Below are positions 23,254 through 47,621 of a stretch of DNA of 47,621 nucleotides, in pieces. Every line of letters begins with the position of its first letter. Positions within the stretch are counted from its first letter, which is position 1. This DNA comes from a virus. Under the pieces are notes generated by a model. That model saw nothing but the letters and a program-made list of their open reading frames with translations. It was not told the DNA's origin and did no database searches. The translations under genes were made by a program, and so were the position numbers. The stretch spans positions 1-47,621 of IMG/VR virus record IMGVR_UViG_3300038379_000272; one strand, written 5' to 3'.

Positions 23254-26200
23254 ATGGGCCAGTTGCTTGAAGCACTTCGGAAAGATCAGCCGGCGGCATC
23301 TGCGGAGACACCGGCGCCTGCGGTACAGGGCTCTTTGCTCGAGAGGCTTCGAGGCGAAAAGCCTACGGAACCTGACGAGCGAGGCGCCCTGCGTCGAGGT
23401 CTTTCATCTGGGTGGGAGAACCTTAAAGGTACGGGGTTGCAGATAAAGGCGCTGGCAAAGTCACTCTACGGAGATGATGAGGGGGCGGCGGCAGACTTCG
23501 AACGAAGCCTCTTCCGTAACATGAAGGCCGGAAAGCTCGCGCCAAAATACTCGAAGATCGAGGACGTGTTGTCGAAGGGAGACTTCGGCGACTTTATGTC
23601 CTATGCCGGCTTTACGCTTGGCGAGCAGATGCCGAACCTTTTGGGAAGTATTGGTACGGCGGGGCTTGGTGGTTTCGCTGGACGTAAGATCGGCGAGATG
23701 AAGGCGAGGCAGCTCCTTACGGATGAGCTTGCTGAGAGGCTCGTGAAGAAATACGCAAGTCGTGGGGCTATTACCGGCGCGGCAGCAGCGAGTGGCGCGA
23801 TCGAAACGGGCGCTTCAGGGCAGGAACTCTTCGAGGCGACGGGGAAGCCGCAACCGGGGCTTGCGTTAGCGGCTGGGGCGGCAAAAACTGTGCTGGATAT
23901 TGTGACGCCGACAGCGCTTGCGAAACGCTTTGGTCTCGCGCCAGATGTAGCGAGCCGCTTACATGATGCCCTGTTTAATCGCCTAAAAGGTAAGGGGGCA
24001 ATTCGTCGTGCCCTCGGTGGTGCGCTTGGGGCGGGCCTAGCGGAGACGGGCACTGAAGGGCTGCAGGAGCTAATTGACGTAACGACGAGAAGCTTCGTAG
24101 ATGAGAACACGAAAATCCTCTCGAAAGAGACAGCGAGTAGAATGCTCAATGCGGGAGCCGCGGCCTTTATTGTGGCGTCGCCGATTGGCGCTGCGGCTGG
24201 CGTTGCGGGTGGACGCGAGCAAGGGCCGGATCAGACTGGTGGACTCGAGAAGCTGATCGGTCAGCAGCCCCAGCCCGTCGTTCCGCCGGTTCCGCCGCAG
24301 CCAGGGCAAATCGAGCTACCTCTGCCGCCACCTCCACCGAAACCCCTGCCACCTGTGGTTCAGCCGCCGGTGGTTCAGCCCAAACCGCCGGTGGTACAGC
24401 CTCCTGTGGTTCCGCCGAAACCCGTTCAGCCGCAGGTGCAGCAAAAACTCCCCGGACTTCCCCTGGAAAAACACCCCGTTTATACCACGGGAGCTGGGCC
24501 CTACCTCATCACGGATACGAGCGGGGTTGCGCCGGCCGGGAGAGTAGAGCTGCTGAACAACCAGCGGGCCATTGAGCGGATGTCTCGAGGAGAGCGGCGA
24601 AACATGCGGATCTTCCGGGTCCCGACGGGGAAGAAGTCCTCTGCGGACTTTACCGCAGGACTCGATGCTTTGCCGACCTATGCAAGCGAAGTGACGGACG
24701 GCCTACTGGGACTCTCGAAGGGGCAGACCGGGGCGATAGCTCTCGTAAGGCGAGCGATCTTGGAGCGGAACACCCAACTTCGCAAAGCTCTGCTTACCGA
24801 AAGTGGAGTGCCTGACCTTACCGAAGCGAACCGCCTCTATGAGGAGGCCATTAAGCTCGGCTTCAGGTTCCAGCCCTCACGGCCGAATGCAAGCTTGCTC
24901 TATGTAGGCGCGAAGCCTCTCGAAACCTCTCAGCTCGAAGAAATCGGCACGGTGACGCCGCACTATGAACTCAGCGGCTCGGTAGCCCTTGCGAATGAGA
25001 TTGGAGATAAGCCGAACTCGATCACGTCGTTTACGACAAGTAAGGCATCCATTAAGAACAAGGTAAGTGCGACGAACTCAGGCTACGAGCTCGATCTCTA
25101 TGCCGTGGACCCCTCGATACTGTCTGCAGGAGATGTGGCAATTCAGACTCTGTTGCCGCTAACTTCGGCGGAAAAGCAGGCGAAGATGGCGCAGTACCTT
25201 AAGGTACTGCCTCACGTTGCGTCGAGCGTAGCGGCGACGCTGAAGCAGCGCTTTTACGACGAGGTACTTAATATTGCTACTCCGAACGATAAGCGAAAGC
25301 TCATCTACCAGGAGCTGATGAAGCAGGGGCTTCGCTATCAGCCGAATAGCGCCGACTTCTTCGTAGTGGGACCAGTTCCACCGGCGGCGTTGAAGCGAAC
25401 GGTGGCGCCGGCGCTCAGCTTTTGGCAGACACACATGATGGGGCTTTCTCGCAGCTTTGGGGTGGAGTACCTCGATCGGTTTATTGGCCTTAGAGATCAG
25501 ACGACCGGAAAGCCTTACGATCCGAAAACCCATCAGCCTGGCACGGTGGCCGTTTTCGGTAAGTCCGGTGGAGTCTGGACTCCTTCGGAGATGAAGCGCT
25601 TTGCGAAGTTCACTGAACTGATTACGAAGCGCATGATGCCGAACGCGAAGCTTGTGCTGTCGTTTGAGACGAGCGTTGAGGCTTCGACCTATCATCCGAT
25701 AAGGAATGGTTTCGGCGTCATTACGATGAGAGTTGGGGCGGTCGAGAAGATGGATCGAGCGTCCTCGACCCTTACGCATGAGCTGGGGCATGCCCTGGCC
25801 CATCACGAGCTCTCAAATGTGGACTCGAATGTTCTGGGCTCCCTCTATTCAGCGTTCCAGCGTGATATGGCCCGCGCAGGACGGGAGACCGCCTCGGATT
25901 GGATGCAATACTTCTTCCGAGGGTATGATCTTGCGATGAACTACTGGGGGAAGGACACTCGGCCGGCCGCGACGTTCATTCAAAAGAACTTCTACGAGTG
26001 GCCCTATAGCTTCGACGAATGGATTGCGGAGCAGACAGCTCGGTGGTTCACCGGAAGTCAGCAGCCTATGCGGGTGATGGACAAATTCTTCAGCCGACTC
26101 GCTAGGAAGTTGAAAGAGATATTCTCCCTCTCGAGGCGGACGTTTCCGACGGCAGAGATCGAGGTCGAAACCTGGCTCAATTCACTCTACGCTCGGCGGC

Positions 26201-29052
26201 AGATGCCGATGGCTGCGCCAGCGATTAGTCCGGTCGCTATGACGGACGTGACGACTGAGGGGGTAGTGGAGAATGCAAAAGCTGACCCCCTCGAAGCCGT
26301 GCCGCGGACGGCGGGGGGCGACTACTTGAAGGCGATGCCCTTCGAGAGTCCGGAGGTTCGGGGGCAGGTGGTTCAGCAAGCTGACAAGTTCAACAAGTGG
26401 ATAGATGCCACTTGGCAGCTTTTGCAGATCGCAGACAAAAACCTTCACATCTTAGGGTTGCAGCGTTACGTCGGCTTTACAAGATCTTGGCACATTTCGA
26501 AGATGCATCTCGTGAGTCGGGCAGAAGGGCGGCTGAAGCAATGGAGGCGGCTCGGCAAGGAGATGGCCTCGAACCTCTCGAACTTCATGTTCGATATTGA
26601 TAAGATGGTTTATCTGCAGCCGGGAGAGAATGCTCGCCATCCGAACAATGCAGAGCTGCTCGCTCTAGCGAAAAAGCACAACCTGAACCAGGCGGCCTTT
26701 CAGACCTACCTTGACATTAAGGGCGACTTTTTGCACGTCTTGGATAAGGTCGAGGCAGCTGCAGTGAAGGATGCTACTAAAAGCATTACTGATCCGGCCA
26801 GCCTCTCGCTCGCCCTCATCAACATCAAATCCGAGATGCGACAGCTTCGCTCGAAGCCCTACTTCCCTCACGAGAGGTTTGGGGACTGGACAGTTGCGGT
26901 TCGGGACGCGGCAGGAGAGCTGGTGTTCTACCAGCAGTTCGAGTCGAAACGAGCGGCCCTACGGGCGGAGAGGAGCCTTCACCTTCAGTTCCCCAATCAC
27001 GCCATCCGTTCGGGGAAGCTGCCGGCGGAACTTCGGCAGTTCCAGGGCATACCGCCCACGATCCTGAAGGGGTTGGCGAATAAGCTTCAGCTAACGCAAG
27101 CTCAACGCGACCATCTAGACGAATTGATCTTCGATCTCTCGCCAGCGAATAGCTTCACGAAACACTTCAAGAAGCGCAGCGGGATCGAGGGCTATAGCCT
27201 CGATGGGATGAGAGCTTATGCGAGCTACTTTATGCATGCAGGTAGTCACGTGGCTCGGCTGGAGTGGCGACAGGACCTCGAGGACAGCATCAAGGCTGTG
27301 GAGCTGAGTGCTCGTGCCATCAATATGCCTGAAGCTGCGGGCGAAGTGGCGAAGCGCCAGGGCATTGCCGATTGGTTGAAGCAGCATCTCGAATACATCA
27401 TGAACCCTCCGAATGAGTGGAGTGGGCTGAGAAGCCTTGCGTTCCAGTGGTACCTCGGCTTTGCGGTGGACAGTGCACTGATCAATCTGACGCAAATCCC
27501 AATGGTGGCAGCGCCTTACCTTGCGTCGAGGTTCGGCGATGCGAAGGCCCTGGCCGCCCTCACGAAGGCTTCGCTCGATTTGAGGAAGGGCTATAGGCTC
27601 ACGGCCTCGTTGCCGAAAGACGAGCAGGACGCCATCGCAAAGGGCGTCGAGCAGGGCTTCCTTGACGAAAGCCAGGCTGCGGAACTTGCCGCGACGGCTC
27701 AGGGAGGGAACATGGCGAGGTTCCTTCCTGGGACGGAAGTGCAGCGTACGCTCATGTGGTTGGCAGACAAGTCTGCGTGGATGTTCCAGCAGGTGGAGAA
27801 GCTCAACCGCCGCGTCGTGTTTCGGGCCGCTTATCGGTTGGCGAAAGCCCAGCCTGGCACCCAGTACCTGAACCAGCTGGTGGCGTCGAACCAGATGCTC
27901 TACCAAGACCTCTTGGGATTGGGCTGGAAGCCAGAAAACGCGGCGGCCTTCATCGCCGGCCGTGATGCTGTCGAGCGAAGTCAGTTCGAATACGCTTCTT
28001 GGGCAAGGCCGAAGTTTATGCGAGGCAAAAAGGGCGTGCTCTTTACGTTCTTTATGTTTCAGCAGAACATGCTCTGGATGTTTAAGAACTCACCGGGTGG
28101 GACGAGGGCGCTCTTTGCCATGCTGGCTGCCGCGGGTCTGATGGGCCTACCGGGAGCTGACGACCTTGATCAGTTCATCAAGTACGCTGCGGCGAAGCTC
28201 TTCGGCCGGCACTTTAGCCCGGAGCACGAACTTCGCAAGCTACTGACCGAGATCACCGATCGGCCTGACCTGATATTGCACGGCTTGGGGCGAGAAAGCT
28301 TTGGCCTAACGGCCTTGGGCAATCAGCTTGGAATGAATGTTCCGGGGTTCGACTTTTCGTCCCGGCTAGGCATGGGGCGCCTGGTGCCGGGAGCGCAGCC
28401 GCTTTTCGATCCTTCGCTTACCTACGAGGAGAAATTCACCAAAGTCGCTGAGGACGTTCTCGGAGCGAGTTACGCGATACCACTCCGCATGGTGCGGGCC
28501 TTGGAAAGCGGCGACCCGGATGTGTTTAAGCAATGGGAACGTATGCTCCCAAGGGCCCTGAAGAATGTGATGAGGGGAATTCGCGTTGGACTCCGGGGCG
28601 AGGAGACCTCGCGCAGCGGAGCGGCGATAGCCGACTTCGATGTGACGAATACCGCAGATACGCTGGAGCTCGCGGGCTACATGCTCGGCTTCACCCCAAC
28701 GAAGCTGACCGAGAAGTGGGACCTGATTGCGGCGCAACGAGAGGCGATCGGCTTTTGGGCGCTGCAGAGACAGGTGCTTTTCGACCAGTTCTACTCCGCT
28801 CGAAAGGGCAAGGATCGTGAGGCCCTGGCGGATGTGCGGGAGGCAATTGATCGTTTCAACTCTCAGGTACCAAACGCGAAACTTCGGATCAGCACGAAAA
28901 GCTTGCTCCAGAGCATCAAGTCCCGACAGTCGAAAGAGAAGAAACTCGAAAGCGGAGACGCTACCTCGAAAACCTATCAGGGCCTTGCCGAGGACGTGAA
29001 GAGGTATTATCCCGAAGTGGATTTTGGCTCCGTAGGAACGGCCTCGCCCTGA
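23254..29052 (+). CDS. Giant polyvalent virion protein with zincin metallopeptidase motif and PLxRFG-like motif
   Basis: 1932 aa. Gly-zipper-like hydrophobic N-region, Pro-rich linker, HELGH (nt 25777..25791), YFPHERFG, and a hydrophobic C-terminal region. Confidence 0.7.
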   Translation: MGQLLEALRKDQPAASAETPAPAVQGSLLERLRGEKPTEPDERGALRRGLSSGWENLKGTGLQIKALAKSLYGDDEGAAADFERSLFRNMKAGKLAPKYSKIEDVLSKGDFGDFMSYAGFTLGEQMPNLLGSIGTAGLGGFAGRKIGEMKARQLLTDELAERLVKKYASRGAITGAAAASGAIETGASGQELFEATGKPQPGLALAAGAAKTVLDIVTPTALAKRFGLAPDVASRLHDALFNRLKGKGAIRRALGGALGAGLAETGTEGLQELIDVTTRSFVDENTKILSKETASRMLNAGAAAFIVASPIGAAAGVAGGREQGPDQTGGLEKLIGQQPQPVVPPVPPQPGQIELPLPPPPPKPLPPVVQPPVVQPKPPVVQPPVVPPKPVQPQVQQKLPGLPLEKHPVYTTGAGPYLITDTSGVAPAGRVELLNNQRAIERMSRGERRNMRIFRVPTGKKSSADFTAGLDALPTYASEVTDGLLGLSKGQTGAIALVRRAILERNTQLRKALLTESGVPDLTEANRLYEEAIKLGFRFQPSRPNASLLYVGAKPLETSQLEEIGTVTPHYELSGSVALANEIGDKPNSITSFTTSKASIKNKVSATNSGYELDLYAVDPSILSAGDVAIQTLLPLTSAEKQAKMAQYLKVLPHVASSVAATLKQRFYDEVLNIATPNDKRKLIYQELMKQGLRYQPNSADFFVVGPVPPAALKRTVAPALSFWQTHMMGLSRSFGVEYLDRFIGLRDQTTGKPYDPKTHQPGTVAVFGKSGGVWTPSEMKRFAKFTELITKRMMPNAKLVLSFETSVEASTYHPIRNGFGVITMRVGAVEKMDRASSTLTHELGHALAHHELSNVDSNVLGSLYSAFQRDMARAGRETASDWMQYFFRGYDLAMNYWGKDTRPAATFIQKNFYEWPYSFDEWIAEQTARWFTGSQQPMRVMDKFFSRLARKLKEIFSLSRRTFPTAEIEVETWLNSLYARRQMPMAAPAISPVAMTDVTTEGVVENAKADPLEAVPRTAGGDYLKAMPFESPEVRGQVVQQADKFNKWIDATWQLLQIADKNLHILGLQRYVGFTRSWHISKMHLVSRAEGRLKQWRRLGKEMASNLSNFMFDIDKMVYLQPGENARHPNNAELLALAKKHNLNQAAFQTYLDIKGDFLHVLDKVEAAAVKDATKSITDPASLSLALINIKSEMRQLRSKPYFPHERFGDWTVAVRDAAGELVFYQQFESKRAALRAERSLHLQFPNHAIRSGKLPAELRQFQGIPPTILKGLANKLQLTQAQRDHLDELIFDLSPANSFTKHFKKRSGIEGYSLDGMRAYASYFMHAGSHVARLEWRQDLEDSIKAVELSARAINMPEAAGEVAKRQGIADWLKQHLEYIMNPPNEWSGLRSLAFQWYLGFAVDSALINLTQIPMVAAPYLASRFGDAKALAALTKASLDLRKGYRLTASLPKDEQDAIAKGVEQGFLDESQAAELAATAQGGNMARFLPGTEVQRTLMWLADKSAWMFQQVEKLNRRVVFRAAYRLAKAQPGTQYLNQLVASNQMLYQDLLGLGWKPENAAAFIAGRDAVERSQFEYASWARPKFMRGKKGVLFTFFMFQQNMLWMFKNSPGGTRALFAMLAAAGLMGLPGADDLDQFIKYAAAKLFGRHFSPEHELRKLLTEITDRPDLILHGLGRESFGLTALGNQLGMNVPGFDFSSRLGMGRLVPGAQPLFDPSLTYEEKFTKVAEDVLGASYAIPLRMVRALESGDPDVFKQWERMLPRALKNVMRGIRVGLRGEETSRSGAAIADFDVTNTADTLELAGYMLGFTPTKLTEKWDLIAAQREAIGFWALQRQVLFDQFYSARKGKDREALADVREAIDRFNSQVPNAKLRISTKSLLQSIKSRQSKEKKLESGDATSKTYQGLAEDVKRYYPEVDFGSVGTASP
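24262..24444 (+). repeat. Pro-rich tandem tract (PPVVQ-type repeats) inside the giant protein
   Basis: QPQPVVPPVPPQPGQIELPLPPPPPKPLPPVVQPPVVQPKPPVVQPPVVPPKPVQPQVQQ. Confidence 0.9.
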
Positions 29053-30263
29053 TACTCGTAGCCGAGAGAGTTGTTGATTAGCGCGAGCTTGATCGTCCCC
29101 ATTGAGAGAAGGTTCGAGATCGCGGCATCGAACCGCTTGCGGTCGATGAACTTCGATACCATGATGAGGAGGTCTTTTTGGCTGCTGAAGCCTCCCGCTC
29201 CCCGTAGGGCCGCCACAACCTCGGTTTCGTCCTTCGACTGATCCGTCGCCCCTATGGTGTTGAAAACCTTCTGAAGGTCTACCTCCTGGGCGGAGACGAG
29301 GCGCTCTGCTGCCGTCAAGTCCTCGACTGTGATGAGCCTCGTGTTTCGCTGAGCCGCCGCGATCACCATCGCGAGCTTGTGCATGTGCGTCTGCTTGCGA
29401 GCCACGTACCCGCCGTAGCGATCGGAGGTTAGGTGCTTGGGTCGATTGGTCCAGTGGCGTATGTACCATGAGGTCCCCCATTCGATTGCCTCGCGCGAGA
29501 GTTCGTACTCTCCCGCAATGGCCGCGATTTGCTTAAGGTCCTCGACGAGCATGGAGGCCATAGCTTTGTGCTCTTTGCTCTCGATGGCCTCGGAAAGGTA
29601 AGCCGTGAACTGTCGCTTGGCGTCGCCATAGACGAAGATGCAACGGGAGGTGAGGCCGCCCTCGATCATATAAGCCGGGAAGTTGGCTCGAAGCCAGGCG
29701 GGAGTAGTGCAGCCGATGATGTTCATCCAGGGGTTGACGATCCGGGTCGAAGGCTTGTCGCCGGTCTTTACACGATGCTCCCAGGTTCGGATTTGCCCAT
29801 CCCAGAGGTCTACCATTACGTCGATTAGCTCAGTGTCCTTGGGCTTGAGGAAAGTGCCTAGCTCGCTAATGCTGATCGTCAAGCAGCTCATGGGAATGAG
29901 GGCATCGTCGGCCGGCATTTGAACCAGCTCGACGGCCTCTTCGAGGGCGACCGTGAGGCCCTGCCATGTGAGGCTTTGGGGCCCGAACTTGATACCATCG
30001 ACCTGCTTCAGAAGTGAGAAGCCAATGTGGGCAGAGGTAGACTTTGCGATAACGCCAGGAGGTCCGACGAATACGATATAGAAGTTAGGTGTCCACTGGA
30101 AGTGTCGCTGGTCGATCCAAACGCGGCGGCGGAGGGCTCCCGCAACGACGCTAACAGCCGTCCAGAAGTGGAAGGCGTCGGGGGCCTCGGAGTGCTTGGT
30201 GTATTCCACATAGGCTTGTAGCCAGTTGTCATAGAACCGGCTCGTTGGGGCTAATTCTGACAT
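29007..30263 (-). CDS. P-loop NTPase, putative replicative helicase / primase-associated protein (DUF3987/VirE-like)
   Basis: 418 aa. P-loop-like VGPPGVIAKST. Last gene of the replication arm. Its 3' end overlaps the giant gene by 46 nt. Confidence 0.45.
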   Translation of the reverse strand: MSELAPTSRFYDNWLQAYVEYTKHSEAPDAFHFWTAVSVVAGALRRRVWIDQRHFQWTPNFYIVFVGPPGVIAKSTSAHIGFSLLKQVDGIKFGPQSLTWQGLTVALEEAVELVQMPADDALIPMSCLTISISELGTFLKPKDTELIDVMVDLWDGQIRTWEHRVKTGDKPSTRIVNPWMNIIGCTTPAWLRANFPAYMIEGGLTSRCIFVYGDAKRQFTAYLSEAIESKEHKAMASMLVEDLKQIAAIAGEYELSREAIEWGTSWYIRHWTNRPKHLTSDRYGGYVARKQTHMHKLAMVIAAAQRNTRLITVEDLTAAERLVSAQEVDLQKVFNTIGATDQSKDETEVVAALRGAGGFSSQKDLLIMVSKFIDRKRFDAAISNLLSMGTIKLALINNSLGYEYQGEAVPTEPKSTSG

Positions 30264-30594
30264 TGAGGTGATCCATCGTTACATAGCCAATGGGGAGCTT
30301 AAGCTGCCGAGCAATCTCGAACTCGCGAGTAAGGCCGATGGACGTTCGCCAGCCAGGGATGCAGAGGGCGTAGAACTCCTTGGCCGCTTCAAGAAAGTCG
30401 CGGTTAATGCGCTCCCAAAAGGCGGCGTCGGTCGGGAGGCCGAACCGAAGGGCGAGGTCGTGGCAATGGGCGATGGGGCTATAGATCACTAGGCCGCGGC
30501 GGATAAGTGAAGCAGTCGCGACGAGTGTTAGATGCACTCGCTCATTTACCACAGCGGGATTGACGTCACTGTAGGGTGTGCCGAAATAGATCAT
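30229..30594 (-). CDS. DUF1937-like (nucleoside 2-deoxyribosyltransferase-fold) protein
   Basis: 121 aa. Pattern YSPIAHCHDL...FWERINRDFLEAAKEFYALCIPGWRTSIGLTREFEIARQLKLPI. Confidence 0.55.
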   Translation of the reverse strand: MIYFGTPYSDVNPAVVNERVHLTLVATASLIRRGLVIYSPIAHCHDLALRFGLPTDAAFWERINRDFLEAAKEFYALCIPGWRTSIGLTREFEIARQLKLPIGYVTMDHLNVRISPNEPVL

Positions 30595-30603
30595 ACTCGA
30601 ACC

Positions 30604-31362
30604 TCATACGTAAAATACCTCGCGAGGGTTCTCTACGTCGAAAGGCTGAACAGCCCCCCAAGACTTGATGGAGGCCTTCACTCCCCACGGAATGTGGAGC
30701 GGGTCGGGATAGGGGACGGGGATGCGGCTTATGCGGGCCTTAAGTTCCTTCACCCTATGGAGGTCCTTGAACTGGATCTGCGGGATGATCGAGTCGTGGA
30801 CCTGGAGTAGGAGTTCCGCCCAAGGGAACTCGCGAAGTATGATGGCGCAAGCGCGTTGCGTCACAATGGCGATGGTGCTCTGCGGCTTCCAGGCGAGAGC
30901 CTCGGGGAGGAGGGCCTCGGGCCGGTCGAAGTAGTGGATGCGATAGCCGAAGGGGTTGAAGATCTCCCGTTTGGTCATGAGCTGCAAGTCGGTTTTGCGA
31001 TGATACTCTCGAATTTCGGGGTAGCGAGTGAAGAAGTATTGTTGGAACTTACTGACCAGTGCTTCGGGGATCGAGGCGGCCGCGCCGATACCTCGCGGCT
31101 TACCCCCATAGATGGTACCATAGGCGAGGTTCTTGCACTTCGTATACTCGGGTTCGTGCTTTTCGTTGATACGATACGCCGCAGGGAAAATCACCTTCAT
31201 GGTTTCGATGTGGATTTTAACTCCGGCGAGAAAGTCCCGCTTGAAGTTCCCGCCGATCTCCCAGGCGATGAGCATTGCCTCGGCTCCGACGAGGTCGAAG
31301 TCGAAAATAGCGTAGCCTCTGTCGGGGATGAAGATGTCACGAATATTAGGCATTTGAAGCAT
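30604..31362 (-). CDS. Family A DNA polymerase, C-terminal half (palm and fingers)
   Basis: 252 aa. Motif A FDFDLVGAEAMLIA, motif B KCKNLAYGTIYGG, motif C LLQVHDSII. Begins MLQMPNIRDIF. Confidence 0.8.
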   Translation of the reverse strand: MLQMPNIRDIFIPDRGYAIFDFDLVGAEAMLIAWEIGGNFKRDFLAGVKIHIETMKVIFPAAYRINEKHEPEYTKCKNLAYGTIYGGKPRGIGAAASIPEALVSKFQQYFFTRYPEIREYHRKTDLQLMTKREIFNPFGYRIHYFDRPEALLPEALAWKPQSTIAIVTQRACAIILREFPWAELLLQVHDSIIPQIQFKDLHRVKELKARISRIPVPYPDPLHIPWGVKASIKSWGAVQPFDVENPREVFYV

Positions 31363-31610
31363 CAGATACCCCCTTGCCTTACGCGACGCTCTTTACGTTT
31401 AAGGGCTTCGTCACTCTGCTTACGGTTTGCGAGGAGCGAGAGCCTGTGCTTGTGGCAGTAGACGTAGACGCTGCTGCGGCTGCGGCCGAGGACGAGAGCG
31501 ACCTCCTTGGCCGAGGCGCCGGCGGCGAGCATCGACATAAGGACCTCGATCTCCTCAGGGCGGTAGGCCGTGGGGTGATGGCCCTTGACGTTATTTGCGA
31601 GGCGTTTCAC
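31362..31610 (-). CDS. Small HTH protein (GcrA N-terminal-like or NUMOD1-like)
   Basis: 82 aa containing YRPEEIEVLMSMLAAGASAKEVALVLGRSRSSVYVYCHKHRLS. The stop overlaps the start of the pol C-half. Confidence 0.5.
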   Translation of the reverse strand: MKRLANNVKGHHPTAYRPEEIEVLMSMLAAGASAKEVALVLGRSRSSVYVYCHKHRLSLLANRKQSDEALKRKERRVRQGGI

Positions 31611-31850
31611 TTTCGTCGCTCCCCGGCTCGAGTTGCGCTTCCTCTTTGAGGAACTCCTCCATATGGGGGTCGCGGTTGAGCTCTTCGGCGTAAGCCTCTC
31701 CTACCTTCGAGCCGATGGCGTAGAGTCTAGCATGGAACTCGCAGATCACTCGCTTGTCGTCGAGGATGAAAGTACCCTGGCGGTTGCACTCTCGAAGGCA
31801 ACAGCGGGCCAGAAGGCCAAAGACTCTTCTCATTCGTCCTCTCCTTTTGA
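31363..31850 (-). mobile_element. ~0.5-kb two-ORF insertion interrupting the polymerase gene (possible degenerate homing or moron cassette)
   Basis: It lies between pol residues ...NLQNI and PNIRDIF... Mobility is inferred, not shown. Confidence 0.3.
31591..31833 (-). CDS. Small Cys/His zinc-finger-like protein
   Basis: 80 aa with CCLREC...CEFH (CX3C-X14-CX2H). ATGA overlap with the stop of the pol N-half. SD AAAGGAGAGGA. Confidence 0.5.
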   Translation of the reverse strand: MRRVFGLLARCCLRECNRQGTFILDDKRVICEFHARLYAIGSKVGEAYAEELNRDPHMEEFLKEEAQLEPGSDESETPRK

Positions 31851-33566
31851 GATGTTCTGAAGGTTGGTCCCCCGGCCGAAGGCGTTCTCGCTCGAAGAGT
31901 AGCGAAAGGTATCAGTTCCAGCGGGATTAAACGAGCACCTCATCCTTCCGTCGGGGTCGGCGGGAGCGGAGAGTATTCCGTTCCTAATGACCAGTAGGCT
32001 TCGGGTTTCCTGAAGCCGCTCGGTGATCGGCTGGAGTAAGGGGGCCTTGAGGGCAATCTTATTCAGAGCGTCGTCGTCGCAGGTGCGCCGTTTCGTCTTG
32101 CGGTCGAAAACCTCGGGCACCCCGCAGAGGTCGTAGAAGAATTTCGCCTGTTGTGTGGGGGACCTATACCACTGGCTTTTTGCTGTCTTGCCGGCGAGAA
32201 GAGGCGGAAGGTCGGGGGGCATGAGCTGTGAGAGCTCGGCGTCCCTCTTCTGGATTGCGTCGTCGAACTCGAAGTAGAGTTTGCTGCGAGCCTTCTCATC
32301 GACGCGAACGCCTCGACGCATCATGTCGAAGGCGACAGCGAGCTGCTCTAGCCGGTCGGTAAAGAGCTCTCGGAACCCGAGGGTGTCGATGAGGCGCTCT
32401 AATTCTTGCGTGATTTCCCAGGTCGTGACGGCATCGACGCAGTTGTAGCGCCAGAGCTGCTCTTCCGGCATCGTCGCGGGGTCCCAGTACCTGCCGTCCT
32501 CTTTCCAGTAGCGGTGGTAGCGGCAATAAAGCGAGGATAGATAACCGAGGTCTTTTGGAGTACCTGGCCAGCAGAGGTGGTGAGCCACCATCGTATCGTG
32601 GCTCGGTGTCGGTACTTCCCAAAGCCAATAATCGAGATACTGCATGTCATAGAGGATATTTTGATTGGACCAGCGAATATCCCGTCGCGCCAAGAGTGCT
32701 TGAAGGTGACTGCGGATTGAGGCTTCTTCATCTTGCGTCCAGTAGCCATAATCGTTCTCCACACACATGAGGGGGATGCAGACTGCATCGGTGGCGCTCC
32801 AGGCAAAACCGAGGCAGGCGATGTGGCCGAGACGGGTTTCGAGGTCGCAGGTTATCCAGCTTCCGGCGGGAAGTCGGAGGAGGAACTCCAGGGCGTCGAT
32901 GGCTTGCTCGAAGGTGGGGCGGATGGTGAAGTTGTAGTCGGGGTAGGGGACCGAGGTGCCTCGCGCCAGTGGCGCCACTCGGACTCTAAGGTCGTGGACT
33001 GCCGCGGCCCGCCAGGACCACTGGCGCATAATGGCCGCAGGGTGGTACGTGGGGACGAGGGGCGTTCGAACTTCAGGATCGTTGCCGACGTTCCATTCGA
33101 GGTAGCTGCCACGCCACTTCGTAATTCCCGTGGGAACCTTATAACCTTCGTCGTCGGCGACTCCGAAGTTACTTTCAGTAAGTGCCCACAGCGCGTAGTT
33201 GCCAAGTGGTACAATGACCCTGGGCTTGATTGCATTAAGTTCGCTATAAAGCCTTCCGATATCCCCGCGAGTCTCAGGGCTTGGACACAATCCTCGTATG
33301 AAGGTGAACCCGGCTTTTCGAGCATCTGCTGTCCTTTCGAAGAAGAACTTCATGTCGTTCGATGGTGGGCGCCTTGGGCAGACGTTGGTGAAGAACACCT
33401 CGGCGACGGGGATACCGGCGTCAGAGAGCATGTTCTCCAGTTCGCGGCCCGACAGTCCGACGAAGGGCTTTTGCGCCGCCGCCTCGTTTTCGCCCCAGGC
33501 TTCGCCGACTACGACGATTGGAGCGTTACGAGGGCCTCGCGTTCCGAAGAAGGGAGGGAGAGGCAT
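31830..33566 (-). CDS. Family A DNA polymerase, N-terminal half: UDG-like domain, 3'-5' exonuclease and thumb
   Basis: 578 aa. UDG family-4-like motifs GEAWGENE..PFVGLSG, FFTNVCPRRPP and YHPAAIMRQW. Exo motifs ITCDLETR, NQNILYDMQYL and YNCVDAVTTWE. Ends GTNLQNISKGEDE. Confidence 0.8.
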   Translation of the reverse strand: MPLPPFFGTRGPRNAPIVVVGEAWGENEAAAQKPFVGLSGRELENMLSDAGIPVAEVFFTNVCPRRPPSNDMKFFFERTADARKAGFTFIRGLCPSPETRGDIGRLYSELNAIKPRVIVPLGNYALWALTESNFGVADDEGYKVPTGITKWRGSYLEWNVGNDPEVRTPLVPTYHPAAIMRQWSWRAAAVHDLRVRVAPLARGTSVPYPDYNFTIRPTFEQAIDALEFLLRLPAGSWITCDLETRLGHIACLGFAWSATDAVCIPLMCVENDYGYWTQDEEASIRSHLQALLARRDIRWSNQNILYDMQYLDYWLWEVPTPSHDTMVAHHLCWPGTPKDLGYLSSLYCRYHRYWKEDGRYWDPATMPEEQLWRYNCVDAVTTWEITQELERLIDTLGFRELFTDRLEQLAVAFDMMRRGVRVDEKARSKLYFEFDDAIQKRDAELSQLMPPDLPPLLAGKTAKSQWYRSPTQQAKFFYDLCGVPEVFDRKTKRRTCDDDALNKIALKAPLLQPITERLQETRSLLVIRNGILSAPADPDGRMRCSFNPAGTDTFRYSSSENAFGRGTNLQNISKGEDE

Positions 33567-33571
33567 AGAGC

Positions 33572-34858
33572 CTACTCCTTCTCATACATGCGGTTGCGAG
33601 CGTGCTTGACGAACTCGGGCGAAAGCTCGATGCCAGTGGCATCAACCGCGAGAGCGCTCGCCGCGGGGAAGATGGGACCGAGACCGCAGCAGGGATCGAG
33701 GACCTTATCGCCAGCCTTACAGCTGCGGGCGATGAGGCGCTTGAAGAGCTCGACGGGCTTTGCGGCGGGGTGCAGGGCGTTAGGTTGGTTCGTCACGTCG
33801 AGGAGGTCGCCGAGGAACTGGTAGTGGGGCTTATCGCCCTTGATGCAATAGAGTAGCCATTCAGTCGTGCGGCGGAAGCCCCTCTGCGGCAGGGGGTCGT
33901 GGCCGGCGGCTCCGCCCTTGAACCAAGTGATCGGTGTGCGGAAGGCGTACCAGCCGGCAAGCTGCGCCGCTGTGCGCAAGGTGTGGAAGTGGTCAATGTC
34001 GCAGAAGAGGTAGAGGTGGGCTTGAGGCTTGGTGACCCGAAAGCCCTCGACGAGGATGGTAGTGGCGATGCCGAGGCCGAGCTCTGCCGTGTCACTATAG
34101 GTATGAGCGGCGCCGGCGGTGCCGAAAGCATCGGCTCCCATGCCGTAGGGGGGATCGGTGAGGATGAGATCGAACTGCTCATTCGCGAAGGTGGCGAGAA
34201 GCTCCTTGCAATCGCCCTCAAGCAGGACGTGCCGAGTGGTCGCCTTCGTCATCTTTACGAGGTCCTCCTTGAAGTCGGCCTCGAGCTTACGGGTTACGAT
34301 GTTGTGGGCCTCTTTTAGCGACCGCGCTTGCTTGACCTGCGGATCGTCGCGGAAGCGATCGACGAGGCGAGAGCGGGTAATCTCGGCCGAGGCCGCGTCG
34401 ATCGAGGCTCCGGTCGTGCTACTGACTTCGCGAGCGGTATCGGCCACGGTCTGAGCGGGGTTCTGCGCTTGACGCAGGGCGTGAAGCTCTGCGAAAGCAG
34501 CCGAGCGATCCTGCCAAGAAAGATCGAGACGCCTGATGTTCTCTTCAAGTTCGACCTCCTTGAGCCGAAGGGGTTCGAGTTCGCTCGTGAGGGTAACGGG
34601 AATATCGTCACCCTCCATTTCGATTTCGTCGTGAGAGAAGCGGCGGTTCTCTTCGATGAGCTTACCGATGGCGCGGAAGCGGCACTCGCCGACGACGAGC
34701 TGATAGCTACCATCAGGAAGTTCTCGCACGACTGGGGCGTGAAGCAAGCCGAAGGCCTCGATGCTATCCGCCAGGCTTGCGATATGGGAGGGCGGAACCG
34801 CCTTGCGCTGGCGGCCCTCGGGGACGACGATCGCTCCGTAGGGAATGGTTTGGGTCAT
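33572..34858 (-). CDS. ParB-like-domain-fused beta-class DNA methyltransferase (N6-A or N4-C)
   Basis: 428 aa. ParB/Srx-like GLLHAPVVRELPDGSYQLVVGECRFRA. Motif IV LILTDPPYG precedes motif I VLDPCCGLGP. Confidence 0.8.
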   Translation of the reverse strand: MTQTIPYGAIVVPEGRQRKAVPPSHIASLADSIEAFGLLHAPVVRELPDGSYQLVVGECRFRAIGKLIEENRRFSHDEIEMEGDDIPVTLTSELEPLRLKEVELEENIRRLDLSWQDRSAAFAELHALRQAQNPAQTVADTAREVSSTTGASIDAASAEITRSRLVDRFRDDPQVKQARSLKEAHNIVTRKLEADFKEDLVKMTKATTRHVLLEGDCKELLATFANEQFDLILTDPPYGMGADAFGTAGAAHTYSDTAELGLGIATTILVEGFRVTKPQAHLYLFCDIDHFHTLRTAAQLAGWYAFRTPITWFKGGAAGHDPLPQRGFRRTTEWLLYCIKGDKPHYQFLGDLLDVTNQPNALHPAAKPVELFKRLIARSCKAGDKVLDPCCGLGPIFPAASALAVDATGIELSPEFVKHARNRMYEKE

Positions 34859-35040
34859 ATGAGGCCCTTCTCTTTTGCAAGGCTTTCAGGAAGCGTGAGG
34901 GTGCCATCCTCGAACTCGCACATGGACTTTGGTACCCAAATTTTACCAGTGCCAGCATCGACGAGGATGGCCTTCTCGGTTTCGGTGATGAAGATGCAAG
35001 CGACTTCAACGAGATCACTTGCGCCAGATGAGCGAGACAT
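34855..35040 (-). CDS. Hypothetical small protein
   Basis: 61 aa. ATGA overlap with the methyltransferase start. GGAGGAG RBS. Confidence 0.6.
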   Translation of the reverse strand: MSRSSGASDLVEVACIFITETEKAILVDAGTGKIWVPKSMCEFEDGTLTLPESLAKEKGLI

Positions 35041-47494: not shown

Positions 47495-47621
47495 CCCCCC
47501 ACGTCGAAAGCAACATTGTTGCTCGCGATGTTCGACGGGGGGTCGGCGGGGTCGCGAGGCTCGCGGCGGGGGGTCGGCGGTCCCGGCGGCGGGGGTCGGC
47601 CTGGCGGTCTCGCCTCACCCT
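47495..47621. repeat. Right copy of the exact 127-bp terminal direct repeat
   Basis: Identical to 1..127. Confidence 0.95.

Follow-up and report, generated by a model that had tools for sequence, protein, structure and literature searches.

Family A DNA polymerases are textbook single-chain enzymes. This work concerns a viral locus at which such a polymerase, with a uracil-DNA glycosylase (UDG)-like domain at its N-terminus, is encoded in two open reading frames (ORFs), an N-half and a C-half, with two small genes (ORF-A and ORF-B) lying between them. The locus is on the minus strand of the IMG/VR virus record IMGVR_UViG_3300038379_000272, of which positions 1 to 47,621 were analyzed; this whole stretch of 47,621 nucleotides is called the window below.

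In the most comprehensive survey of recent years, Czernecki et al. reported in 2023 an exonuclease/polymerase gene fission, which they described as the first split among family A polymerases (PMC10201439). In S-SBP1-like phages, which are T7-like cyanophages, PolA is also encoded by two adjacent genes, whose products are predicted to regain the normal fold with solvent-exposed free termini, and was read as a two-component enzyme; an AlphaFold2 model of the split exonuclease and polymerase of S-SBP1 superposes on the model of an uninterrupted relative (PMC10201439). The S-SBP1 break is at the boundary of the exonuclease and polymerase domains, with a 1-nt frameshift, overlapping stop and start codons and no intervening gene (PMC10201439), whereas the break in the window is within the polymerase domain (around positions 133-140 of the 381 in the Pfam model), has 467 nt and two genes between the halves, and recurs in several lineages.

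A break inside the polymerase domain is also found in the OM43 phages MEP401 and MEP402 (Zobellviridae), in which the N-terminal ORF contains the exonuclease and the first part of DNA_pol_A and the C-terminal ORF the rest (PMC10580990). One small ORF separates these halves, and the split is common to most of the related metagenomic genomes (PMC10580990). Unlike the window polymerase, that of MEP401 and MEP402 belongs to a PolA lineage without the UDG domain, and the authors left the presence of an intron possible (PMC10580990). Their break is also located some 12-15 residues further on, after a segment ending in NLQNFDGEIKTLFLSRYGE and directly ahead of the motif A strand (MILNADAKALEW), and the inserted ORF of 77 amino acids is not a homologue of ORF-A, since it has no cysteine or histidine ligands. 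In the LUZ24-like Pseudomonas phages a family A "DNA polymerase part I" and "part II" are separated by ~2 kb of small genes, an arrangement showing that the parts of a phage polymerase can be distant cistrons (PMC3890496). That split is at a domain boundary, because part I comprises just the exonuclease (171 aa) and part II all of the polymerase domain (546 aa).

The N-terminal family-4 UDG-like fusion itself is shared with the PolAs of N4-like, SPO1-like and SP15-like phages (PMC10201439, bioRxiv 10.1101/2025.03.26.645540). All of these described UDG-fused enzymes are single chains, whereas the window polymerase is encoded as two. The SPO1-group polymerases are among its detectable relatives, with 20-27% identity to the window protein.

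The only cultured phage found with the same split is Vibrio phage vB_VspS_VS-ABTNL-3 (MF497422), which is annotated with two polymerase ORFs and is cut in the same loop (PVS_29, PVS_28 and PVS_27). Its UDG-exonuclease-thumb ORF ends in NLQNLPKGDG-stop, and the palm-fingers ORF starts shortly before LPNIKKLF. The intervening gene encodes 184 amino acids, is unrelated to those of the window and has no Pfam match, and the genome has no ORF-A; no paper discussing this split was found in the literature. Fission of phage polymerase genes is known, then, and what is particular to the present locus is a break within the catalytic domain, at a loop that has been cut recurrently, and a slot that contains a new zinc-finger family.

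The two halves of the polymerase

The four ORFs of the locus are those of the preliminary description, which was made from the sequence alone: the N-half (31830..33566, 578 aa), ORF-A (31591..31833, 80 aa), ORF-B (31362..31610, 82 aa) and the C-half (30604..31362, 252 aa), all on the minus strand. The N-half begins with a UDG-like domain (aa 11-189, 33000..33536) that includes the motifs GEAWGENE and YHPAA and matches Pfam PF03167 (E=2.8e-20), with a score of 73.3 bits against a cut-off of 24.3; TIGR00758 scored 77 bits on this half, under its full-length cut-off. The domain also matches the solved family-4 UDG structures 1ui0 and 4zbx, with GEAWGENE and HPAA aligned, and is thus a predicted family-4 UDG domain. 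It is followed by a 3'-5' exonuclease (PF01612, DNA_pol_A_exo1; aa 234-393, 32388..32867; CDLETR, NQNILYD and YNCVD) and by the thumb-side part of the polymerase (aa 468-574, 31845..32165), which covers positions 33-133 of PF00476 and has NLQNI at its end, before the terminal SKGEDE-stop. The C-half consists of the palm and fingers (PF00476 positions 140-355 of 381), with motif A as DFDLVGAE, motif B as KCKNLAYGTIYGG and motif C as QVHDS. The polymerase domain is therefore shared between two polypeptides, and the order of the motifs is kept across both ORFs.

Alignment to hidden Markov models bore out the clean split in the NLQNIP region that had been proposed. In the DNA_pol_A model (Pfam, 381 positions) the N-half covers 33-133 and the C-half 140-355; in PHROG 17 the N-half ends at 988 and the C-half starts at 996; and in the NCBIfam Pol I model (889 positions) the N-half extends up to 640 and the C-half begins at 649. 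Since the halves abut in three profile libraries, 7-9 model positions apart, nothing has been lost or duplicated. The C-half also aligns to Klenow chain positions 365-574 and to Taq 593-823.

All the sequence signatures of a family A enzyme are present in the two ORFs taken together, namely Exo I (DxE), Exo II (NxxxD), Exo III (YxxxD), motif A (DxxxxE), motif B (KxxxxxxYG) and motif C (HD). An alignment of 46 sequences, six of them from other split relatives and 39 from intact homologues, showed the Exo I-III residues D241, E243, N303, Y374 and D378 to be invariant and D307 nearly so; in the same alignment the motif A and C residues were invariant or nearly invariant, and the motif B lysine was invariant. 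In the seven split C-halves the catalytic residues and the tyrosines of motif B were invariant.

Purifying selection acts on both halves, and as strongly as on the neighbouring replication genes. Compared with a relative of 85% identity, the ratio of nonsynonymous to synonymous substitution rates (dN/dS) was 0.10 for the N-half and 0.11 for the C-half, and 0.09-0.13 for the adjacent DUF3987 and DUF1937 genes, values that are approximate because dS exceeds 1 and synonymous sites are near saturation.

An assembly or indel error, which the preliminary description had named as a way in which the split could prove spurious, is excluded. An independent assembly (Logan, run SRR12687280) was 100% identical over 12.8 kb around the locus, and the identical split was found in relatives whose N-halves are 85%, 72%, 57% and 55% identical to that of the window.

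The break site and the junctions between genes

More than 90 uninterrupted UDG-fused homologues contain NLQNIPKG, followed by 6-35 mostly acidic residues and then (L)PN(I/V)RxLFIPD. When the tail of the N-half (NLQNISKGEDE) and the head of the C-half (MLQMPNIRDIF) are joined, they make a loop of ordinary length. Because the intact homologues have the same loop, the SKGEDE tail and the MLQMPNIR head are its native ends. The alignment of the C-half to Klenow and Taq starts at the strand RIRQAF/RIRRAF (Taq 593), and NLQNIP we take to be residues 580-585 of Taq Pol I, by our own numbering, which places the break in the short loop that follows NLQNIP. The cut thus falls in a variable acidic surface loop, before the beta-strand leading into motif A.

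The genes are joined to each other without spacers. The N-half and ORF-A share an ATGA stop/start overlap (31830..31833, minus strand), with an AAGGAG Shine-Dalgarno sequence within the loop codons for KGEDE; ORF-A and ORF-B overlap by 20 nt (31591..31610), ORF-B starting with GTG at 31610; and ORF-B and the C-half share a TGATG overlap (31360..31364) with AAGGGGG upstream. The native loop sequence of the window therefore doubles as the carrier of a Shine-Dalgarno sequence and a start codon, and the ATGA overlap recurs in the relatives L011, L012 and L014 (related loci are designated by L numbers). The SKGEDE tail had been described as an extra segment that encodes this ribosome-binding site; the second part of that statement holds, but the tail is not extra. 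Between positions 29000 and 35200 the coding strand has no recognizable promoter- or terminator-like sites, and the four chained ORFs belong to one operon.

The distance from the stop of the N-half to the start of the C-half is 467 nt, somewhat less than the ~490 nt first given. The LQNI-like strings on both sides of the gap, earlier taken as a sign of a duplicated or rebuilt target site, belong to the native loop of the family, which is of normal length. A repeat search revealed no direct or inverted repeats flanking the insert (31362..31833), and its GC content and GC content at third codon positions (GC3) are the same as in the flanks.

Distribution and age of the split

A protein search with the joined halves returned ~760 homologues at E<=1e-20 and, among the best 120 matches, 23 N-half-sized proteins of 567-593 aa that were 49-85% identical to the window, while the full-length homologues among these matches did not exceed 43% identity. 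All 23 N-halves stop in the loop after NLQNIP, and they form one clade with no intact member within it. The order N-half, gap and C-half was seen in the loci of eight relatives.

Scanning metagenomes with the C-half alignment yielded 80 further loci, many of them from soil-type samples. In all 37 split loci that could be resolved, the N-half stops in this loop, its tail reading, for example, NLQNIPKGEERD-stop or NLQNIPKGEER[DE]-stop, and the gaps measure 396-2617 nt. The polymerase was intact in seven loci, including L077, which has a clean uninterrupted junction. The remaining loci were too short upstream, their C-half ORFs starting 0-78 codons from the match. A scan of GTDB species-representative genomes with the same alignment gave no match, and consequently no prophage or host clues.

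A bootstrapped neighbour-joining tree was built from both halves (791 columns, moderately divergent proteins). The window subclade, which is the clade with ORF-A, was split in 8 of 8 members (bootstrap 100), and a second clade of 15 members was wholly split (bootstrap 92). Two split loci, L069 and L102, were nested among intact genes (bootstrap 77), and the fission in this lineage was probably independent, judging by the tree, unless some lineages have re-fused their genes. The Vibrio phage branched outside a 37-taxon clade of bootstrap 100; given this position outside the split clades and its 29% identity to the window N-half, its split is independent. The same loop has therefore been cut independently in at least two lineages, and probably in more. 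Together, these comparisons indicate an old and inherited split carried by a whole clade of uncultured phages, and no fresh insertion of a mobile element.

A related UDG-polymerase that is split elsewhere was observed in Caulobacter phage Kuura (L003, 2971-6375). Its break lies between Exo II and Exo III, and the parts are separated by two small ORFs, of 98 and 102 aa, that matched no family.

Gene content of the gap

Even deeply diverged relatives retain both polymerase halves, while the DNA between the halves keeps changing. Across the split loci the gap ranges from 0.2 to 2.6 kb, and its content differs by locus. In the window it holds ORF-A and ORF-B, and in L011, the relative of 85% identity, ORF-A and an ORF-B that is 44% identical. 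ORF-A is accompanied by an XRE-type helix-turn-helix (HTH) protein in L013, by a dNMP kinase in L017, and by HTH proteins, RNase T and others in L018, L019 and L023, where the gap reaches 1.9 kb. It is alone in L015 and in L014; in the latter (L014:5770-6072) it was not called by the gene caller of the source and overlaps the start of the C-half by ~75 nt, a case showing that small slot genes are easily missed in annotation.

Other genes occupy the slot in the sister split clades. A census covered 65 gap ORFs from 32 loci, and dUTPase, with 18 matches, was the commonest occupant in the sister split clade. The other families were class II ribonucleotide reductase, TSCPD, cold-shock domain, RNase_T, SNase, DUF1937, DUF3310, an NrdR-type zinc ribbon and an OmpR-type winged helix (Trans_reg_C). 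No HNH, GIY-YIG, LAGLIDADG, intein or transposase families were detected among the ~75 gap ORFs of related split loci, and an empty gap, with the split halves abutting, was not observed among ~45 split loci.

The loci with a dUTPase in the gap include L029, L040, L041, L057, L064, L070, L079, L085, L088, L095 and L097, so that a uracil-excluding dUTPase sits within the gene for a UDG-bearing polymerase. The dUTPases of L084, L090 and L092 are without the usual DPDYTGE motif. Small proteins of the cysteine-rich or HTH kind turn up repeatedly in the slot in different clades, for example in L029, L040 and L097, which combine a CxxC motif and a winged helix. In L019 a zinc-ribbon ORF of 79 aa (L019:4734-4973; CSECG...CHRC), unrelated to ORF-A, precedes it.

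The replicase-operon slot has, accordingly, repeatedly captured nucleotide-pool enzymes, of which the dUTPase beside the UDG-bearing polymerase is an example. Some of its occupants are found near the polymerase in other arrangements. DUF1937 is located at 30229-30594 in the window and within the polymerase gap in L042, and RNase T flanks the polymerase in the window and lies within the gap in L018, L019 and L023. Genes of the replication module seem to move in and out of the polymerase slot.

ORF-A and ORF-B

ORF-A (31591..31833, minus strand) encodes a zinc-finger protein with the ligand pattern CX4C-X14-CX2H, two helices and an acidic tail. The pattern was given as CX3C...CX2H in the preliminary description and is corrected by the alignment of 28 homologues, in which C11, C16, C31 and H34 are invariant. 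The AlphaFold2 model (pLDDT 86.6) consists of a zinc knuckle hairpin, a long helix, a second helix and the acidic tail. By fold, no PDB entry matched at E<1, and the best were B-box, RING and LIM fingers with E>1. Searches of Pfam, PHROGs, NCBIfam and folds revealed no nuclease domain in ORF-A.

ORF-A was found in 9 of 9 distinct loci of the window subclade. It was absent from the flanks of the intact-polymerase loci, as well as from the remaining split clades and every other related locus, and hmmsearch did not detect it in the complete genomes of MW202489, whose polymerase is intact, and of the Vibrio phage. An exhaustive search of 1.84 billion representative proteins with the ORF-A model returned 30 matches at E<=1e-3, of which ~27 were of 52-106 aa; a word-indexed protein search that used the ORF-A alignment found nothing beyond the members already in it, and a metagenome scan matched 345 stretches, none of which was confirmed. 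Its dN/dS against the 85% relative was 0.08. Judged by these sequence comparisons, ORF-A is a new, selected and lineage-restricted small zinc-finger family that has been inherited vertically.

The ligand pattern, CX4C-X14-16-CX2H, is shared with the EsV-1-7 (Pfam PF19114) and WRKY19-type fingers, and 2 of the 28 ORF-A members gave a weak match to this motif (best E=0.0016); the window protein gave none. Homology to EsV-1-7 is unproven, as the matches are far below the Pfam thresholds, and, unlike EsV-1-7, ORF-A is a single stand-alone phage unit with helices and an acidic tail. The possibility that ORF-A is an in-frame domain of longer intact polymerases was also considered and rejected, since the inspected loops were of 6-35 aa and contained no zinc finger. 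In the family, the acidic tail often has an aromatic residue amid acidic ones (..PDF.., ..FDLDALGELDE.., ..EEFLKEE..), which recalls the acidic aromatic tails by which phage single-stranded DNA-binding and helicase proteins bind their polymerases.

ORF-B (31362..31610, minus strand, GTG start) encodes an HTH protein with a long basic helix and is a variable accessory gene. It gave weak Pfam matches to HTH_38, HTH_7, GerE and GcrA, and a match of 7.9e-9 to PHROG 664 ("DNA binding protein"). Its predicted fold is a generic three-helix HTH followed by the long basic helix, and no nuclease domain or fold was detected in it with Pfam, PHROGs, NCBIfam or a comparison of the AlphaFold model with the PDB. 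Fold searches of both inserted proteins gave generic zinc-finger or HTH resemblance, with E>0.1. ORF-B is 44% identical to its L011 counterpart with a dN/dS of 0.47, against 78-85% identity for the polymerase halves; a homologue search returned only ORF-B itself, the L011 counterpart being the sole relative found, and in other subclade members it is swapped for an XRE-type HTH or missing. ORF-B evolves fast and is replaceable, and it is probably a dispensable regulator.

A probable two-chain replicase and the alternative explanations

The replicase of this phage is probably a family A DNA polymerase that is synthesized as two chains, in an inherited arrangement in which the gap serves as a gene slot. 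Chain 1 (UDG, exonuclease and thumb) and chain 2 (palm and fingers, with motifs A-C) would reassemble non-covalently into the normal fold. The likeliest origin would be the insertion of a foreign gene in a loop that tolerates free ends, as opposed to the simple frameshift of S-SBP1, because every split locus has at least one gap gene and the gap genes of independent lineages are unrelated. The stop codon, the Shine-Dalgarno sequence and the restart would then have been kept by selection, with all cistrons translated from one message, and the translational coupling provided by ATGA, the 20-nt overlap and TGATG may help to balance the amounts of the products.

Some points weigh against this interpretation. 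That the two chains associate physically and are active is something we infer from comparative data. The insertion origin would draw on one observation, the absence of empty split sites among ~45 loci. The trees were made by neighbour-joining, and the number of fissions could instead reflect re-fusions. The near-saturation of synonymous sites noted above limits the precision with which selection on the halves is estimated. Finally, ORF-A was also considered as a universal partner of the split and was rejected as such; the larger sister split clade is without ORF-A, so it is not generally required by the split enzyme.

A more elaborate version would have the loop after NLQNIP act, in UDG-fused phage polymerases, as a recurrent and selectable docking slot whose captured genes (ORF-A in the window, dUTPase or ribonucleotide reductase in sister clades) are co-translated with the two chains, and ORF-A, with its acidic aromatic tail, would be a third subunit or assembly factor of a three-piece replicase. 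We consider this unlikely, although somewhat less so than the alternatives that follow. If true, it would make a heteromeric family A polymerase whose catalytic domain is itself divided, beyond the exonuclease/polymerase junction.

The preliminary description favoured a domesticated or decayed mobile cassette in a classic homing hot-spot. On this view a free-standing homing-endonuclease cassette would have invaded the NLQNIP codons, leaving as remnants ORF-A, the zinc-binding piece of an HNH-type nuclease, and ORF-B, its HTH DNA-binding domain. Free-standing endonuclease genes do split phage genes, and the metal site of ORF-A (CX4C...CX2H) is superficially like the zinc sites of some HNH enzymes, a likeness that no search confirmed. 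A related arrangement is known, in which a gene lies between the halves of split-intein fractured genes (PMC2677866). The break adjoins one of the most conserved DNA stretches of the gene, where independent cuts occurred in the Vibrio phage and probably in two metagenome loci, and ORF-B is of the HTH_7/HTH_38 type with a weak match to a PHROG annotated as "DNA invertase". However, no nuclease family was found in ORF-A, in ORF-B or in the ~75 gap ORFs; ORF-A has no beta-beta-alpha-metal nuclease match, and no catalytic His, Asn or Asp is conserved between its ligands. It is vertically inherited, with the low dN/dS given above and only ~27 small homologues in the protein collection searched, the insert has no flanking repeats and the composition of its flanks, and ORF-B has no close relatives elsewhere. 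A homing gene would be expected to have left empty sites among close relatives, but ORF-A is present at every locus of the subclade and the nearest intact allele is at most 43% identical. A mobile cassette is therefore improbable. The hot-spot was called classic, which does not agree with what has been published: the sites at which group I introns interrupt the family A polymerase genes of phages are others, the fingers subdomain being one example (PMC3428280). The idea survives in a weaker form, that of a recurrent break point, because the Vibrio phage, and probably two metagenome loci, were split at the loop independently.

It had also been proposed that the halves might be rejoined by some mechanism, and a self-splicing intron, a split intein, translational bypass or DNA excision could in principle restore one chain. 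Phage genes for family A polymerases often harbour group I introns (PMC3428280), there are split-intein fractured genes whose halves are separated by another gene (PMC2677866), and an intron was raised by the authors of the OM43 phage study for their split polymerase (PMC10580990). Against this, Rfam 15 gave no match at E<=10 on either strand of 30300..33800, and the gap is fully coding, selected and non-homologous between relatives, in which it extends up to 2.6 kb and can hold whole enzyme genes such as ribonucleotide reductase or dUTPase. The adjacent model positions leave no room for intein halves, and no intein family appeared in any scan. An intein would be expected to have a Cys, Ser or Thr nucleophile at the start of the C-extein, and the C-half starts with MLQMPN. 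Stop, Shine-Dalgarno and start signals are conserved at each junction, and no recombinase is present in the gap. Rejoining thus seems very improbable, and the same can be said of a dead or dying polymerase, or an assembly error, with replication carried out by another enzyme. A split within the catalytic domain would often inactivate a polymerase, but the sequence is the same in both independent assemblies, both halves with their motifs intact are retained by dozens of diverged relatives, dN/dS is ~0.1, and no match to another polymerase was noted for the genes on either side of the split within the 12.8-kb stretch. Of the two outcomes first envisaged, rejoining or a two-chain enzyme, the latter most probably applies, being well supported by the comparative evidence.

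The thumb is encoded in one ORF and the palm and fingers in the other, a division kept under selection across a large uncultured group, many of whose members come from soil. If the replicase is made in this way, the loop would offer a split site already validated in nature for the design of two-piece Pol I-type enzymes, and reconstitution of the chains, with or without ORF-A, would provide a direct test of the communication between thumb and palm. Gene callers and surveys based on polymerase markers will misjudge such phages, either calling them truncated or counting them twice.

Genome context

The first 127 bases of the window are identical to its last 127 (positions 47495-47621), a terminal repeat indicating that the window is a circularly closed phage genome of ~47.5 kb. 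The plus strand carries a structural arm (~1565-29052) and the minus strand a replication arm (29007 to ~47400), to which the polymerase locus belongs; no tRNA genes were found in the window.

Directly upstream of the N-half is a gene in which a ParB N-terminal domain is fused to an N6/N4 DNA methyltransferase (33572-34858, minus strand); most relatives have kept this gene. It is preceded by an ORF of 61 aa (34855-35040, minus strand; ...AILVD...WVPKS...LAKEKGLI), which resembles, by eye, a 72-aa ORF in the polymerase gap of L053 (L053:5094-5312). Downstream of the C-half, beyond DUF1937, the DUF3987 gene (29007-30263, minus strand) is helicase/primase-like. The two arms converge at this gene, whose 3' end overlaps by 46 nt that of a giant ORF of 1932 aa (23254-29052, plus strand), and a protein of ~1900 aa is similarly placed in relatives.

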